This document shows, piece by piece, positions 15,917-22,766 of a stretch of DNA of 64,000 bases. This DNA is from an uncultured Chloroflexia bacterium. GTDB lineage: Bacteria; Chloroflexota; Limnocylindria; Limnocylindrales; CSP1-4. Position 1 is the stretch's first letter. Every line of letters starts with the position of its first letter. Location: the NCBI GenBank assembly GCA_963849405.1, contig CAWKHG010000006.1, positions 490,350 to 554,349 on the forward strand, given 5' to 3'. The notes under the pieces are model-generated. The model searched no databases. It worked only from the letters and a program-made list of their open reading frames with translations, and had not been told where the DNA came from. The position numbers and the translations under genes are program-made.

Positions 15917-16735
15917 ATGTCCACGATCCGCATCGCGGTCGCATCGACGCCATTGACCGCGACGCTCGACGAAGCGGTACCGGCGGCCATCGCGGCCGTC
16001 GACGAGGCTGGCCGGCTCGGAGCGGAGATCGTCTGCCTGCCCGAGACCGGCCTGCCCGGCCACCGCGTCCAGGCGCGGTCCGTCCCGGACGTCTCGAGGG
16101 CCGAACTCGACGATGCCCTCGCGGAGGTCGCCCTCGCGGCGCGCGCGCGCCAGGGTCGTCACGATCGTCGGCACCGAACGGCCCGATGCCGGGTGGCCGC
16201 GAGATCGTCTCGGTCGTCATCGGCGCCGACGGGACGACGCTCGGCGAGCAGGTCAAGACCCAGATCGATCCCACCGAGGAGGCCGACTACGTGCCGGGAA
16301 CCGGCCGCCGGGTCTTCACGGCCGCGGGCGCGACGTTCGGCATCGCGATCTGCCACGAGGCGTTCCGCTACCCGGAGATCGCCCGCTCGCTCGTCCTCGC
16401 AGGGGCGCAGATCGTGTTCGTGCCCCACTTCGTGACGACCGATGACGGCTCCCTGCCCGCTCGCTGGTGCGACGCCCCGAACCCGTACAACGAGAAGGCG
16501 ATCCTGTGCCGGGCGCTCGAGAACACGGTCTACGTCGCCGCGTCCAACGTGGCCGGCCCGGACCAGGGCTCCCTCACCTGCATCATCGCCCCGGACGGGC
16601 GGCTGGTCGCGAGCCTGCCCTACGGGACGGTCGGCGTCGTCGGCGGCCGACATCGACCTCGACGCGGCCGACCGCCGGCTCGCCCTCCGCTGGGCACCCG
16701 AGCGCAACGCCCAGCCGGTCGGAGAGATGGCCTAG
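15917..16735 (+). pseudogene. carbon-nitrogen hydrolase (nitrilase superfamily), two frame shifts
   Basis: IAVAS...EIVCLPE (Glu), FGIAICHEAFRYPE (catalytic Cys). Pieces in ORFs 15917.., 16186.., 16442.. Confidence 0.6.
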
Positions 16736-17121
16736 GTTCGGCGAGGCCCGGCCGGGCGACGCTCGGCGGCGGCGTTCTCGGCCACCCGGATCCGGACGAT
16801 CCTCGTCACGAGCTCGGCCGGGATGGGCTGACCGGCCGGGAACCGGATCGTCCCCTTCCCCGCCAGGAACGGCGAGATCTCGTCCCCGAGGGCCTCCACG
16901 ACGGCCCCGCTGGCCGGGAACAGGCTGTAGTGGCGCTTGTACGCGTCGTAGGACACGAGGAACTGGTCGCCGTGGCTCCGGAACGCGGGCATGTTGTAGG
17001 CCAGGGACTCGGTCGCCTCGGGTGCGCCGGCCCGGATCGCCTTCCGCAGCACCTCCATGTCGGCGCGCCGCTCGTCCGGGAGCGTGGCCAGGTACTCGTC
17101 GACGGTGCTCGGTTGGGCCAT
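16732..17121 (-). CDS. DUF1801 (YdhG-like) domain protein
   Basis: MAQPSTVDEYLATLPDERRADMEVLRKAIRAGAPEATE... Confidence 0.65.
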   Translation of the reverse strand: MAQPSTVDEYLATLPDERRADMEVLRKAIRAGAPEATESLAYNMPAFRSHGDQFLVSYDAYKRHYSLFPASGAVVEALGDEISPFLAGKGTIRFPAGQPIPAELVTRIVRIRVAENAAAERRPAGPRRT

Positions 17122-17150
17122 GGCTGTCTCGGGCCGCCCTCAGCGGGCGA

Positions 17151-19215
17151 TCAGCCGACCCGGTCCTGTCCGGCCGGGACCGATGTGGCGGCCGGCGTCT
17201 CTTCCTCGGGGCCCTGGGCGAGCCGCAGCTCGGCGATGGACGTCGCCGGAGGTAGCGGCGCATCGTCAGGCGGTCCTTCGTCGCGAGGTCCCAGTGGCAG
17301 CGGCAGAGGCCCCGCGGGCATCCGGCGTGGGGCAGGCGCGGCGAGCGGAGCTCCGTGCTGATCCTGGCGACGAGGCGATCGTCGCCCCGGCAGATGTCGC
17401 AGCAACGAGCGCTCACGAGCTCGGCATCCCTGGCGATCGCCGCGACCCCGCGCAGCTCGGCCGCCACGCCGTCCCGGAAGATCGCGATGACCTCATCCGG
17501 TGGCTGGGCCGGCGAACCGGCGAACCGGTACAGGACGGCGGCCTCGTCGCGCCGCAGTCGGGACGCTTCGTCCCAGTCGCCCTCGTTGCGCGCCGTCCGG
17601 AACGCCCGATCGACGGTGTTCAGGTACAGCTTGCGCGCCGCGCTCACGACCTCCGCGGAGAGTCGCGCGACGGCGAGCTGCGCCATGCGTTCGGCCGGCG
17701 CGCCGGCGGCGGCGGCGTGCTGGAGCCAGCGATCCCGATCACGGGCCCAGCGAACCGAGGCCATGACCCGTCGGCGCTCGGCCTCGAAGACGAGCACGGC
17801 GGCTTCGGTCAGGTAGACCGCGGTCCCGTCGATGCGCTTCACGACGATCCGCTGGCGGCAGCGATCGCAGCGGCGGCTCGCGGTCGGCGCGGGATCCAGG
17901 AGCTTGGCGCAGTACGGGCAGTAGGCCGTAGGGGCGGCCGCCGGAACGGAGCGGGTCTTCCCCGCGGACCGCTTGCTTGCGGCGGATCCCGGCTTCGCCG
18001 CCGGTCGGGCCTTCGCCGCCGGTCGTGCCTTCGCCGCGGGCGGAGGCGGCGACACCCGGGCACTCGCCGGCTCGACGCGAGCCTCTGGTGCGGGCGGAAG
18101 CGCCGGTGCCACCCGGGCCGTGGTCGGCTCGACCCGGGCCTCGGTCGGCTCGGGCTTCGGCGCCGGTCGCGTCTTCGGGGCGGTAGCCCGCCTGGGGCGT
18201 TCGGTCGGGGCCGGACGTGGGGCCGTGGCTCGCCGTTCGGCCGAGGCGGACCCCGTTCGCTGTCGGGTCTCGCGTGCAGGCGCAGCCGGCGACGTGGCAG
18301 CGGAGCTCTCGGCCTGGGCCCTGGTGACGACGGGGCGGGTGCGCGGCACACGGCCCGGCGTCGCGGCCACGGTCGAAGTGGAGCGCTCCACCACGCGCCG
18401 GATCGCGGCATCGCGGACCGGCTTCGTGCGCACAAGCGATGCCAACTCTTCGTCGACCCGTTCCTCGTGGGGCTCCTGCTTGGCGAACACGTGCGCTGCC
18501 GGTGGCAGGCCCGGGGCCGCCGGGACTGCGCGCACGAGCACGGGGACCGGTTCAGGCGCAACTTCGGGCAGGCGCCAGGTGTCGTCGCCGACAGCGTCGC
18601 CGGCTCGAGCCATCACGCCGATCGGCTTGGCGGGTCCGGCCTCGTCCGGCTCGGCCATGACCGGGGTGAGCTTCGGCTCGCCATCGCCGGCGCTTGCGAG
18701 GCCGATCGGCTTCGCCGGGACGATGATGTGCTCGGCGACGACCGTCTCGGCTGCAACGACCACGATAGGGTCGGCTGGCGTCGGCGGCTCGGGAGCGGCC
18801 GGGACCTCGGCCGGCGGGGTCGCCGCGATGATCGTGGGCGGCGGAGAGTCGCCGAGATGATCGTGGGCGGGGTGGCTCCGATGATCGTCGGCTGGACCGG
18901 TCCGGTCTTCGGCAACACCGAGACGATGTCGGACACGCCGACCACGACGATGGGCGGCCGCGGACCGCCCGGCCATGGCCCCGGACCGACCACGATCGTG
19001 GAGGGATCGGGCGCGCCATCGGCGTCCTTCGCCTTGTCCCGGGCAGCCTTGTCCTTGGCCGCTGGGTCGCCATCCGATGGGAAGAGATCGCCGAGCCGGG
19101 CGGCAGTCCGCATCTGGGCGATCGCCCACTCGGCGTCGTCGATCTTTGGCTTTCCCCGCATGAATCCGCGCATCTTCGGCATGCTGTTCTCTCGTCGTGC
19201 CCTTTGGCGAGCCAC
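17151..19215 (-). pseudogene. large Cys-rich protein A: N-terminal domain, Pro/Ala-rich tandem-repeat linker, zinc-ribbon (CPYC...CDRC), helical region, C-terminal CCxxCR...PRLPHxGCPRGLCxC motif. Paralog of 20105..20881.
   Basis: N-terminus in ORF 18613..19215 (GTG at 19215; alternative ATG+RBS at 19182, MPKMRGFMRGKPKIDDAEW). Body in ORF 16583..19129 after a shift inside the PTII repeat (~18840-18900). Probable C-terminus in ORF 17151..17405, acidic tail as in the paralog. About 50% identity to gene B over ~210 aa. Confidence 0.5.
17990..18170 (-). repeat. in-frame tandem DNA repeats (18-bp unit x3 encoding AKARPAAKARPAAKP, plus ~58-bp repeat encoding EARVEP..ARV) inside gene A linker
   Basis: cttcgccgccggtcg(g/t)gc x3 at 17992-18047. 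cggctcgac(g/c)cg(a/g)gcctc(t/g)gt at ~18067 and ~18125. Confidence 0.6.
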
Positions 19216-19350
19216 AGTCCGCTCTGAATCCTTGGACGGGCAGATTACTCCCTACCTACCCAAACTCGTCCAGACCTCAACAGTTCCGTTGCATCTTGGC
19301 ACCGGGACCGGGCGAGGACAACGGGTTTGCACGCCCGGTGGTCGACTCCT

Positions 19351-19983
19351 TTAGAGGACGCCCCGCCCACGGGCCATCATCGCCGGCTGGAGCTCCGTGG
19401 CCGCGACGATGTGGCGACGGTTCAGGACCGCGAAACCGTATCGGGAGATCACGCGCCGGTCGGCGAGCGAGCGGGTGCGCACGTCGGTCATGGGGACCCA
19501 CATCGGATCGCGCGATTCGATGAACACGGAGAGCACCGCTTCGGGATTCAGGTGGACGGCCCCGGTCAGGGTGTGACCAGGCGTCACGACGATCAGATGG
19601 GAGGCCTGCTTCTGGCGGTACTCCATCCCGATCGAGTCCTTCTCGGCGACGTTGCTCATCTCGCAGATGAGCGTCACCTCGTCGGGGTTCACCCAGATGC
19701 TCGGCGACGTGACCTTGGTCGGGTCGCCGTTCCGCCGCAGGACGGTCACGTCTCGCAGCTTGATGAGTCCCTCGTGGTTGTTCACGAAGTCGGACAGCCG
19801 GCTGTGGTAGCCGAGGCTGACGGTCCCCGACAGCCGGAGGTGCTGGCCGACGAGCTCCAGGGGTACGCCCTCGGCGCGCTCAGCGGGCTGAGGGAGCGGG
19901 ACGGCGACGAGCCCGAGCGCTTCGAGGTGTGTCGCGGCATCGCCGTCGACGATCTCGTTCTCGGGGAGTTGCTCCTCGATCAT
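19351..19983 (-). CDS. hypothetical protein with internal duplication (two ~60-aa [LS]G[TA]V-L...SDF/SVF...V...TEL-type halves)
   Basis: 210-aa ORF. GGAG 7-8 nt upstream of ATG at 19983. Sits between the two Cys-rich paralogs on the same strand. Confidence 0.5.
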   Translation of the reverse strand: MIEEQLPENEIVDGDAATHLEALGLVAVPLPQPAERAEGVPLELVGQHLRLSGTVSLGYHSRLSDFVNNHEGLIKLRDVTVLRRNGDPTKVTSPSIWVNPDEVTLICEMSNVAEKDSIGMEYRQKQASHLIVVTPGHTLTGAVHLNPEAVLSVFIESRDPMWVPMTDVRTRSLADRRVISRYGFAVLNRRHIVAATELQPAMMARGRGVL

Positions 19984-20104
19984 GGTCTGGCTCCGTGGTG
20001 AGTGCGTGAGCAAGGCCGGGAGGTGTCCAACGGCCCGGAACGTGGGATCCGGACACCGCGCCTCCGGATTGTAGCCGGACTCGTCATCCGGCCCGGAACG
20101 TCCT

Positions 20105-20881
20105 TCAGGGCTCCTCGAGGTCGTCCGATAGCTCCTCGGCCGAAGGGGCAGCGGGATCGACCGCGGCCGCGGTCACGGTCCCGGATGGTCGGCGACGACG
20201 ACGCTTTGGCAAGGCCTGGACGGCGGGCCACCAGTCGCAGGCGCACAGGCCGCGCGGGCAACCCTCGTGCGGCAGGCGCGGGGTGCGCAGCTCGTCGACG
20301 ATCTTGAACACCTTCTCGTTGTCGGCACGGCACGCCGTACAGCACGCCGCCCCGACGAGCTCCACGTTGCGGGCGACGGCCGATACCTCCCGGAGCGTCG
20401 CCGCGAGCGCGTCGCGGTGGAGCGCCACGACCTCGTCCGATGGCGGCGGGCTGCTGCCGGCCTCCTCGTAGAGCGCGGCGGCCTGCTGCCGGCGGAGGCG
20501 CGCTACGACGTCCCAGTGCTTGTCGCGACGGGCTTCCCGGACGGCCCGTTCCACCGCCACCAGGTACAGGGTCCGGGCCGCCTGGACGCTGGCCGCGGAG
20601 AGCTGCGCGTCGGCGATCCGCTGGCGACGGTCCGGTGCGGCGCCGACCAACCGTCCGAGGGCGAGCCAGTCGCGACGCTGGCGCGTCCACGTCTGCTCGA
20701 GGGCGGTCCGGAACCGCTCGGCCTCGAAGACCTCGACCGCGGATTCGGTGAGGTAGAGCGTCCGCCCCTCGAATCGGCGGACGACGATCCGGCGCCGGCA
20801 GCGCGGGCACAGGCGGGTGCTCGTGGGCGGTGGATCGAGCACGACCCCGCAGTTCGGGCACGCGACGACGGCCGGCGCCAC
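20105..20881 (-). CDS. Cys-rich protein B: N-terminal zinc ribbon (CPNC...CPRC), helical region, C-terminal CCTACR...PRLPHEGCPRGLCACDWW. Paralog of gene A C-terminal half.
   Basis: Intact 258-aa ORF, GTG start. Motif-by-motif alignment with gene A (VYLTE-AV-VFEAER, LYL--V-RA-R-AR, CC--CR, GCPRGLC-C). Confidence 0.55.
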   Translation of the reverse strand: MAPAVVACPNCGVVLDPPPTSTRLCPRCRRRIVVRRFEGRTLYLTESAVEVFEAERFRTALEQTWTRQRRDWLALGRLVGAAPDRRQRIADAQLSAASVQAARTLYLVAVERAVREARRDKHWDVVARLRRQQAAALYEEAGSSPPPSDEVVALHRDALAATLREVSAVARNVELVGAACCTACRADNEKVFKIVDELRTPRLPHEGCPRGLCACDWWPAVQALPKRRRRRPSGTVTAAAVDPAAPSAEELSDDLEEP

Positions 20882-21148
20882 GGGTGCGGGCGCCGGCGCC
20901 TCGACCGCGGGGGGCGGGGTCAGGAGGACCGGCGTCGCCCGTGTATCGGCGTCAGAGTCCAGGCCAAGGAGCCGGCGCAGGAACCCGATCTGGTCACCTC
21001 GCTTCGTCGGGCCACGGACCGCGCCGGGTCAAGCCTGAAGTCGCCAGTGCCCGGGCGCCACTTCCCTGGTCCGTGGTCCGCACAGGGTACTCCGCGCTCC
21101 CACGGAGGCAAGTACGCGGGAGCATGGGCGGCGACTGTGCTTGGCGGA

Positions 21149-21634
21149 TCAGGCGGGCACGCCCTCGTATGCCTCGCGCAGCTTCTCGACGTCGATCTTG
21201 GTCATCTCGAGCATGGCCTCCATGGCCCTGGCCGCACCGGCCCGGTCGCTGCCGTCGAAGTAGCGCTCGATCGCCTTCGGGATCACCTGCCACGAGACGC
21301 CGTATCGGTCCTTGAGCCAGCCACAGACGCTGTGCTCACCGCCGCCGGCGACGAGGCCGTCCCAGTACCGGTCGACCTCGGCCTGGTCCTCGCAGTCGAT
21401 GCTGAACGAGATGGCCTCGTTGAACTTGAAGTCCGGACCGCCGTTCAGGCCGATGAACTTTTGTCCGGACAGAGTGAAGTCGACCGTCAGGACGGCCCCG
21501 GCGGGCGTGCTCGGGTTGTCGGCCGGCGAGCGGTGGACCTTGTCGATCCGGCTGTCCGGGAACAGGGACGTGTAGAACTGGGCCGCCTGCTCGGCCTCTC
21601 CGTCGAACCACAGGCACGGGGTGATGTTCGGCAT
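21149..21634 (-). CDS. VOC family protein (PhnB / 3-demethylubiquinone-9 methyltransferase-like domain)
   Basis: MPNITPCLWFDGEAEQAAQFY...SGQKFIGLNGGPDFKFNEAISF. Confidence 0.7.
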   Translation of the reverse strand: MPNITPCLWFDGEAEQAAQFYTSLFPDSRIDKVHRSPADNPSTPAGAVLTVDFTLSGQKFIGLNGGPDFKFNEAISFSIDCEDQAEVDRYWDGLVAGGGEHSVCGWLKDRYGVSWQVIPKAIERYFDGSDRAGAARAMEAMLEMTKIDVEKLREAYEGVPA

Positions 21635-21749
21635 GGTTGCTCCTCTGGGCTGGTTCTCAACGAGGCCACCCTACACGGGCGTGGGGCCAGCCCGGACAAC
21701 GGTGGTCCCCGGGCCGCCTTTCAGGACCCTTGCGGGTCCTAAGCCGCCA

Positions 21750-21995
21750 TCACGAGCCCCTTGCGGGGAGTCCCTCGCGCTCCTCGTTGGTGGCGATCAC
21801 CTGGTCGATGAGGCGCTCGATCTCCCGATCGGACAGCTTCCGGCCGGCCTCGGCTTCGATGCGCTCACGGGCCAGGCGGAGGACCTCGGCCTTCGGGACA
21901 CGAAAGCCGCCGGGCAGGCGGACGCCCTCGATCTCACCGGCCCGGATCATCCCGCGGATGGAACCCGCCGAGCGATCAAGGACCCAGGACATCTC
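21750..21995 (-). CDS. helix-turn-helix DNA-binding protein (excisionase/MerR-type HTH_17)
   Basis: MSWVLDRSAGSIRGMIRAGEIEGVRLPGGFRVPKAEVLRL. Confidence 0.5.
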   Translation of the reverse strand, partial: EMSWVLDRSAGSIRGMIRAGEIEGVRLPGGFRVPKAEVLRLARERIEAEAGRKLSDREIERLIDQVIATNEEREGLPARGS

Positions 21996-22011
21996 CTTCG
22001 TCGAGAGGGTT

Positions 22012-22766
22012 TCATCCACCACTGGATCCTCCGGATGCAGGGACGGGCTCGGGCGGACCCAGGGGCGACCAACCAAGGACGGCCTTCGCCTTCGCGTTCG
22101 AGACCGGCCCGTCGTCGTCGACGATGTTGAAGGTTCCCGGATCGCCGCGGTGATCGGCAGCCAGGAGAGCTGCCCAGGCGGCCGCGCGGATGTGCACGGT
22201 CGGGGGCTTGCCCGGTCGGTCGGTCCCCGCCCCCGGGCCGTACAGAAGGCCGTAGCGGAGGACGGTCCCCTTGATGCCCGGAGTCATGGTGACCGATCGC
22301 TCGAGGGCGACGATCCCAGGCAACGTGATCCTGGTCCACGGCGCGGTCACCCCGAGCGGATCCGCTTCGCCGTGCGGCTCCGGTCCGTGCGCGTAGAGCA
22401 TCGCGATGCTCTGGGCGACGATCCGTCCGGCACCGGCGGCGATCGCCGCTCGGACGAGGTTGGGCGTGCCGTCCATGCGAAGGCGTGCCGTCCGGGCGAG
22501 CTGTTCGTCCGTGAGCTCTCCACCGGACCCGCCGCCCAGATCGGTGAGCTGGTGGATCACGACATCGGGCCCGGCCGCGACGACGGCGGCGGCGAGCCGT
22601 GCGGCATCGAAGACGTCGACAACGACCGCGTGGGCACCGGCGGCCTCGAGGTCCGCGACCCGAGCCACCGAGCGGGTCGTCCCCGTGACCTCATACCCGG
22701 CGGCGACCAGCATCGGGACGAGTTGGCGGCCGATGGCGCCGGTCGCGCCCGCCAGGAAGATCCGCA
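22012..22766 (-). CDS. NAD(P)-dependent epimerase/dehydratase (NmrA/SDR-like)
   Basis: MRIFLAGATGAIGRQLVPMLVAAGYEVTG Rossmann N-terminus. Confidence 0.65.

Follow-up and report, generated by a model that had tools for sequence, protein, structure and literature searches.

A Limnocylindria gene cluster that pairs two predicted zinc-ribbon paralogs with a tandem DUF6812 protein: candidate membrane-tethered adaptors

Background

What do three adjacent, unannotated genes on one strand encode, and do their products act together? The question is raised by the region between positions 17151 and 20989 of a 64,000-nt stretch (ca. 71% GC) of contig CAWKHG010000006.1, from an uncultured Chloroflexota bacterium of the class Limnocylindria. 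This whole stretch is called the window below, and features are given in its coordinates, on the minus strand unless stated otherwise. The genes are termed A (the long paralog), B (the short paralog) and D (encoding the middle protein), and D' designates a second family of tandem DUF6812-like proteins. Limnocylindria are abundant uncultured Chloroflexota of soil and freshwater, whose cell biology is, to our knowledge, essentially unknown. A, B and D are a conserved gene cluster that is specific to this class and vertically inherited. As for their function, the interpretation that we prefer, at a probability of about one in three, is that A and B would be membrane-tethered cytoplasmic metal-binding adaptors of two reaches, working with DUF6812 proteins.

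Paralogy of A and B and their conserved motifs

Over 229 aa, B and the C-terminal domain encoded by the A frame are 54% identical (E 4e-68), which is far beyond chance and makes the paralogy of the two real; a first-pass annotation of the window, made from the sequence alone, had put it at about 50%. The three genes lie on the minus strand, as stated there, and gene B is intact, since 20105-20881 is an unbroken open reading frame (ORF) of 258 aa, as was also proposed, which can be extended upstream:

20105..20989, minus strand: gene B, short paralog, 294 aa from ATC 20989-20987 or 258 aa from GTG 20881
20798..20860, minus strand: predicted B zinc ribbon CPNC-x13-CPRC (C8, C11, C25, C28), from Cys conservation and sub-threshold Pfam ribbon matches
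20228..20344, minus strand: B C-terminal candidate metal site CCtaCR-x19-LPHegCPrGlCaCDW, from the columns invariant in 56 orthologs

From its N-terminus onwards, B consists of the peptide (M)GFLRRLLGLD, a Pro/Ala linker of about 30 aa, a C4 zinc ribbon, an Arg-rich five-helix bundle and a Cys/His cluster; a KRRRRR tract and then an acidic tail complete it. Conservation was scored across an alignment of 56 B orthologs, with residues numbered from the 258-aa form, and the zinc-ribbon and Cys motifs listed in the first-pass annotation stand up well in it: C25, C28, C180, C181, C184, R185, L203, P204, H205, C208, P209, G211, C213, C215, D216 and W218 are invariant, and C8 and C11, of the first ribbon knuckle, are at least 90% conserved. 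The two CxxC knuckles (CPNC-x13-CPRC in B, CPYC-x13-CDRC in A) are predicted to lie on beta hairpins, in the layout of a C4 zinc ribbon (knuckles 13-20 residues apart), and the C-terminal cluster CCxxC…H..C….CxC contributes six Cys and one His, all of them invariant. The AlphaFold2 (AF2) model of the 258-aa B has a mean predicted local distance difference test (pLDDT) score of 81; the ribbon with its beta hairpin and the five-helix bundle exceed 95, and the Cys/His region reaches no more than 50-60, which is to be expected of a metal site when the metal is left out of the model.

Comparison with known families, folds and systems

Searches of Pfam, NCBIfam, PADLOC and PHROGs with A and B rendered no significant match, only generic zinc-ribbon matches below threshold, and all 56 orthologs behaved alike. 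The earlier statement that none of the three proteins has a named Pfam family is therefore right for A and B but not for the middle protein, which carries DUF6812 twice (see below); the profile search proposed there, for a characterised family that would take in both paralogs, placed neither. The sub-threshold matches of the B ribbon are spread over more than 10 Pfam zinc-ribbon families, the best being DUF7575, Zn_ribbon_FGT1_2, DZR and TFIIB, and no curated zinc-ribbon family scored above its cutoff for the ribbon of A or B. No Pfam family was found for the C-terminal Cys/His cluster of B and A. Among PDB folds, the best Foldseek match for the B zinc ribbon was that of LysW (E 1.1), and a PDB sequence search with the B and D profiles gave chance-level matches only. 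With generic C4 zinc ribbons (TFIIB, RpoP/RPC12, LysW, DZR), A and B share the CPxC-x13/14-CxxC pattern, the predicted beta hairpins and weak, recurrent matches by hidden Markov model (HMM) and Foldseek. In a test for a TFIIB-like protein, the helical domain did not superpose on a cyclin/TFIIB core. No homolog was detected by tblastn in 72,556 plasmids and 50,697 phage records, PADLOC-DB held no match to B or D and only DrmB for A (E 0.06, 9.9 bits), and a scan of 16000-22500 with Rfam gave nothing credible.

Kinship with the phage Mu F/SPP1 gp7 proteins was also considered, on account of their C-terminal motif 'PPxHxxCRC', which superficially resembles …kvFkI…PRLPHxGCPxGxCxC, and was rejected: neither the C-terminal segments of the window nor the 56 orthologs matched PF04233 (Phage_Mu_F) at E <= 10, and PHROGs and the phage tblastn search were empty too. 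A and B are thus outside every family and fold tested, and formally new in that sense only. The A/B/D cluster may be an ordinary lineage-specific housekeeping factor.

The Cys/His cluster brings to mind zinc-containing anti-sigma factors (ZAS, e.g. RsrA) and WhiB-like (Wbl) Fe-S proteins, which are likewise small and cytoplasmic, and as in these the cluster of A and B could gate the binding of a partner. A and B might accordingly act as a thiol/zinc or Fe-S redox switch of ZAS/WhiB-like logic, the cluster sensing oxidants or metal and controlling the binding of DUF6812 proteins. Seven invariant potential ligands within 40 residues go beyond the need of one structural Zn, the paralogs could be differently tuned sensors, and the weak conserved AUC start of B (see below) fits a low-abundance regulator. 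However, A and B lack the HxxxCxxC motif of ZAS proteins as well as HMM similarity to these proteins, and the ZAS and Wbl families gave no match in Pfam. No sigma-factor gene is adjacent, nor was one found among the called or recurrent flanking genes of the window and related loci, and the Cys cluster could be merely structural. We regard such a switch as distinctly unlikely.

The middle protein D and DUF6812

The product of gene D could be assigned to Pfam family DUF6812 (PF20660, gathering cutoff 27.1 bits), with the whole protein and its first domain above the cutoff and the second domain below it:

19351..19983, minus strand: gene D, 210 aa from ATG 19983 (ORF listing: TTG 20013), Pfam PF20660 at E 8.4e-12, 45.3 bits
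19687..19836, minus strand: D DUF6812 domain 1, residues 50-99, 30.1 bits, E 4.8e-7, profile positions 1-49 of 53
19408..19569, minus strand: D DUF6812 domain 2, residues 139-192, 18.7 bits, E 0.0017, profile positions 2-53 of 53

The middle protein had been described as made of two similar halves. Each half does match the DUF6812 model, but BLASTP of domain 1 against domain 2 found no pairwise similarity; from these matches the internal duplication is judged to be real but old. D differs from the family as defined in Pfam in being a tandem of two diverged copies preceded by a conserved acidic N-terminal peptide. Its orthologs are 67-93% identical across the lineage. Relatives of the D' type match DUF6812 weakly, and when D' was used as query for DUF6812 relatives beyond the lineage, the matches listed were almost entirely from Limnocylindria again. 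A literature search for DUF6812 found, within the library covered, no paper that mentions the family.

Residues 10-22 of D (window 19918-19956, minus strand) are an almost invariant acidic peptide, IVDGDAATHLEAL, which is followed by a variable linker and then by the first DUF6812 domain. The folded domains of A and B are basic (isoelectric point, pI, 9.2-9.9) and D is mildly acidic (pI 5.9). The peptide IVDGDAATHLEAL may serve to dock D onto the basic domains of A and B.

Distribution, gene linkage and gene fusion

The A/B family comprises 595 clusters (50% identity, E <= 0.001), and the best 150 of the 595 cluster representatives include 98 A-type proteins, 29 B-type proteins and 23 fragments. 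Among the homologs of A, B and D listed with a named source, almost all come from metagenome-assembled genomes (MAGs) of 'Candidatus Limnocylindrales'/Chloroflexota, many of which stem from one long-read soil survey; a few of the records listed carry labels of other phyla. Linkage was scored in 70 loci of GTDB species with a B homolog, within a reach of 6 kb and with some contigs short, and all of these loci belong to Limnocylindria/Chloroflexota MAGs. The nearest relative of the window is contig L003, with about 16 kb of synteny and a B protein that is 95% identical.

In 43 of the 70 loci, the B homolog has a DUF6812 gene within 6 kb, and the gene orders recur, so that the co-occurrence of the trio in other genomes, which had been named as a check, was found. 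The recurrent arrangements are B-D-A (in the clade of the window), D-A-B, D-B, D'-D-B, D and B divergent, and B alone within 6 kb; in some lineages D' clusters with the A/B/D genes. Apart from A, B, D and D', no conserved neighbour was found: genes for trpE, GGDEF proteins and adenylate cyclases recur only inside sub-clades, and the flanking genes across loci are varied metabolic and housekeeping genes.

In one lineage, an in-frame fusion joins a two-domain D' module with a full A-type protein (L077 6001-7713, L028 3914-5623). The fusion ORF is intact in both assemblies, which share 95% DNA identity. Ahead of it stands a separate, unfused D' copy (70% identical), and B and the canonical D come after it. 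No other observation hints as strongly as this fusion at a joint action of DUF6812-type and A/B-type proteins.

The gaps between the genes, earlier given as 90 and 136 bp, depend on the starts chosen, and those indicated by orthologs (ATG 19983 for D, ATG 19182 for A) give 121 and 168 nt. Neither a terminator nor a sigma-70-like promoter was found in the gaps between B, D and A. A single operon is plausible; the variation of gene order between lineages suggests that the genes can be expressed separately.

The first-pass annotation had likened the trio to a regulatory or defence module, and as regards defence, a compact, co-directional cluster of unannotated proteins with a paralog duplication would suit an anti-phage defence or toxin-antitoxin-like system. 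The data do not support it: the PADLOC, PHROGs, plasmid and phage searches were empty, no nuclease, ATPase or other effector domain was found, the family is held to one class, the D orthologs are as similar as stated above, and the genes alongside are common metabolic and housekeeping genes, not defence islands. A role of this kind is very improbable.

More weight is due to a soluble complex in which A and B would bind RNA or DNA and the small, beta-rich D would be an oligomeric partner, like an RNA chaperone or nucleoid-associated factor, docked by the N-terminal peptide of A and B, which would then not be a membrane anchor. It would be in keeping with the basic A/B domains, with the invariant Arg in the ribbon and hairpin and with the tails KRRRRR and RRYLRRRP. 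Zinc ribbons are common in nucleic-acid binders, and weak matches to the ribbons of TFIIB, RpoP and topoisomerase were obtained. The very high conservation of D is what would be expected of a partner of core machinery, and ribosomal-protein, RF1 or tRNA-synthetase genes adjoin some loci. However, no family or fold known to bind nucleic acids was detected, the neighbourhoods are not consistently translational, the fold prediction for D is too poor (pLDDT 46) to back it, and the high Arg content follows in part from the GC content of about 71%. On balance we hold this complex to be unlikely.

Start codon of gene B

In the window, the frame of B remains open upstream of GTG 20881 and encodes IGFLRRLLGLDSDAD…, in agreement with the N-termini of orthologs, and this upstream part contains no in-frame ATG, GTG or TTG. 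ATC is the first codon of the B peptide in 43 of the 48 orthologs that bear the motif, 4-7 nt past a strong Shine-Dalgarno-like GAGGTG/GGGAGAT sequence; in the window, the corresponding GAGGTG is found at ~20995-21000, ahead of ATC 20987-20989 (minus strand). The GTG within GAGGTG is out of frame in several of the ATC-bearing orthologs, and remote B orthologs have ATG at the position of the ATC. Moreover, in the upstream peptide one serine codon is switched between the window and L003 (TCT/AGC), which points to coding constraint, or selection, on this part of B. An open and conserved frame, the lack of a canonical start and the conserved ATC after a Shine-Dalgarno-like sequence make it most likely that B starts at AUC 20989-20987, 36 codons upstream of GTG 20881, giving a predicted protein of 294 aa. 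Being non-canonical, such a start would lead gene callers to shorten B to 258 aa.

Gene A in the window and in related genomes

The segment 17151-19215 had been taken as a single gene A. Its length of 2065 nt is not divisible by 3, and the gene is spread there over three frames, as follows:

18865..19182, minus strand: gene A segment 1, frame 1, MPKMRGFMRGKPKIDDAEW… to …PTIIGAT, from tblastn of L003 A residues 1-106 (92% identity)
18813..18892, minus strand: 24-nt tandem repeat of PTII(G/S/A)AT units (TRF: 3.1 copies, 12% indels), housing a 53-nt insertion
17234..18838, minus strand: gene A segment 2, frame 2, from tblastn of L003 A residues 98-616 (83% identity) and from paralogy to B
17151..17234, minus strand: gene A segment 3, frame 3, …IAELRLAQGPEEETPAATSVPAGQDRVG then stop, from tblastn of L003 A residues 617-643
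~17842-17920, minus strand: predicted gene A zinc ribbon, within segment 2
~17288-17404, minus strand: gene A Cys/His cluster, within segment 2

The MPKMRGF start of A is ATG 19182, and its frame holds down to ~18865. Segment 2 encodes the folded domain (zinc ribbon, helical bundle and Cys/His cluster), preceded by a disordered Pro/Ala/Arg-rich linker in which short conserved motifs occur, and ends in RRYLRRRP. The third frame supplies the final 27 codons as well as the stop at 17151; there, residues 617-643 of L003 A map to window 17234-17154 with 74% amino-acid identity. Compared with the intact 643-aa A of L003, the window has 53 additional nt inside the 24-nt repeat near 18850, and is short of one base in a C run at ~17238, just past RRYLRRRP.

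The architecture of A can be read from orthologs. Intact ones known elsewhere are 643-680 aa long, and A-type orthologs as a whole span 412-680 aa. Their N-terminus is conserved, M(A/P)K(M/L)RGFL..KPKIDDAEW…RTAARL..LF, and is followed by a Pro/Ala-rich repeat linker with short conserved motifs and then by the folded domain. The N-terminal extension with tandem repeats that the first-pass annotation ascribed to A is present, with ca. 395 aa in the intact ortholog and tandem arrays of 18, 21 and 24 nt; no known domain was found in the long N-terminal extensions of A-type proteins.

Three observations concern the vicinity of A. The ORF 16583-19129 (minus strand, 848 aa) is an artefact in which the main frame of A runs through a DUF1801 gene (16732-17121, same strand as A, another frame), because the 1-nt gap removes the proper stop of A from that frame. 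A 621-nt segment with a SnoaL_2 gene (L003 11642-12262), which stands between A and DUF1801 in L003 and L005, is absent from the window at ~17122-17150, and only 29 nt separate the A stop from the DUF1801 start. Beside the cluster, a carbon-nitrogen hydrolase (nitrilase-like) gene (15917-16735, plus strand) is spread over three frames; only fragments of it are called in L003, and so it is probably a real pseudogene.

The copy of A in the window is broken in frame by either an assembly error or a recent inactivation. In the second case A would be a genuine pseudogene in this genome, where only B and D would be functional. This would account for two independent frame lesions (the 53-nt repeat insertion and the 1-nt gap) and for the 621-nt SnoaL_2 deletion right beside the gene; B and D occur without A in many lineages, and the other genes of the window are mostly intact, so that its assembly is not error-ridden overall. 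Nevertheless, the out-of-frame parts of A still code for ortholog sequence (83% and 74% identity) and have not decayed further, and each lesion is a net loss of one base (one in the repeat, one in the C run), typical of long-read consensus errors. In L004 (9680-11721) A is called as two pieces, of 231 and 267 aa, while the near-identical sister assembly L005 (9680-11722) holds an intact A of 680 aa, and indel errors do therefore occur in the GC- and repeat-rich A gene of these long-read MAGs. A genuine pseudogene is a fair possibility, somewhat less likely than not.

A proposed role at the membrane

Among proteins known as peripheral tethers to the membrane, SepF, Noc and ZipA share a design in which an amphipathic helix at one terminus is joined by a flexible spacer to a folded binding domain. 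Terminal amphipathic membrane anchors are found in SepF, Noc and FtsA, and ZipA is built of a membrane anchor, a long Pro-rich flexible linker and a globular binding domain. A resembles ZipA in having an anchor-like N-terminal helix, a predicted disordered Pro/Ala-rich repeat linker of ca. 400 aa and a C-terminal folded domain, but it has no transmembrane helix and no similarity in sequence or fold. The most concrete pointer to a mechanism is the N-terminal peptide of B: the sequence GFLRRLLGL is kept at the N-terminus of B orthologs, and a related, more polar form in A orthologs. The B peptide has the features of a terminal basic amphipathic helix of 8-12 residues, and the A-type peptide has them more weakly. 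The membrane-targeting sequence of Escherichia coli MinD is KGFLKRLFGG (PMC5471200). For GFLRRLLGLD of B, the mean hydrophobicity (H) is 0.58 and the helical moment 0.51, compared with 0.40 and 0.55 for the MinD sequence. The B peptide is thus like MinD-type anchors in residue pattern, hydrophobicity, helical moment, terminal site and the flexible linker that follows, but it is N-terminal and not C-terminal, and the rest of B is unrelated and holds no ATPase. A twin-arginine signal, of which 'FLRRLL' is also reminiscent, was rejected, as no hydrophobic h-region follows the peptide.

It is this tether-like design, of helix, spacer and folded domain, that makes us favour membrane-tethered adaptors. 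The N-terminal basic amphipathic helix would seat A and B on the inner face of the membrane, and the tethers, short in B (about 30 aa) and long in A (about 400 aa), would set a different reach for each. A and B would then hold a complex with DUF6812 proteins, or else a cargo bound by the basic ribbon and bundle. The invariant CCxxC…H..C….CxC motif would most likely form another metal-binding site, for Zn or perhaps for an Fe-S cluster.

Several results weigh against this interpretation. In 24 of the 70 B loci there was no match to D or to the A-type N-terminus within 6 kb (some of the contigs being short), and D' may be encoded at a distance from A and B, so that the linkage is not obligatory. 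The A-type N-terminal peptides are far less hydrophobic (mean H 0-0.23), and the helical moment of the N-terminal peptides is not significantly above that of shuffled versions. The likeness to MinD extends over 9 residues only, and convergence or a docking motif could explain it. In the D'-A fusion the A-type motif is internal, not at a terminus. Finally, the AF2 model of D, from 42 close orthologs, has a pLDDT of 46 and is unusable.

A bolder version of the membrane-tethered adaptors can be outlined, in which they would form a membrane scaffold of Limnocylindria's own: the two tethers, with a MinD-like helix, a zinc ribbon and a novel Cys6His metal or Fe-S domain, would recruit DUF6812 oligomers and so organise a core process at the membrane, for instance the positioning of the division site or the nucleoid, and B would be kept scarce by its AUC start. 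In this specific form the proposal is speculative and probably wrong.

Conclusions

In phyla that have been little studied, lineage-specific clusters without a characterised function are common, which moderates the weight to be given to the newness of this one. A and B constitute an uncharacterised protein family, with a ribbon-plus-bundle fold that is confidently predicted and matches no solved structure. Through linkage and gene fusion, moreover, the cluster gives the first functional lead for Pfam family DUF6812.

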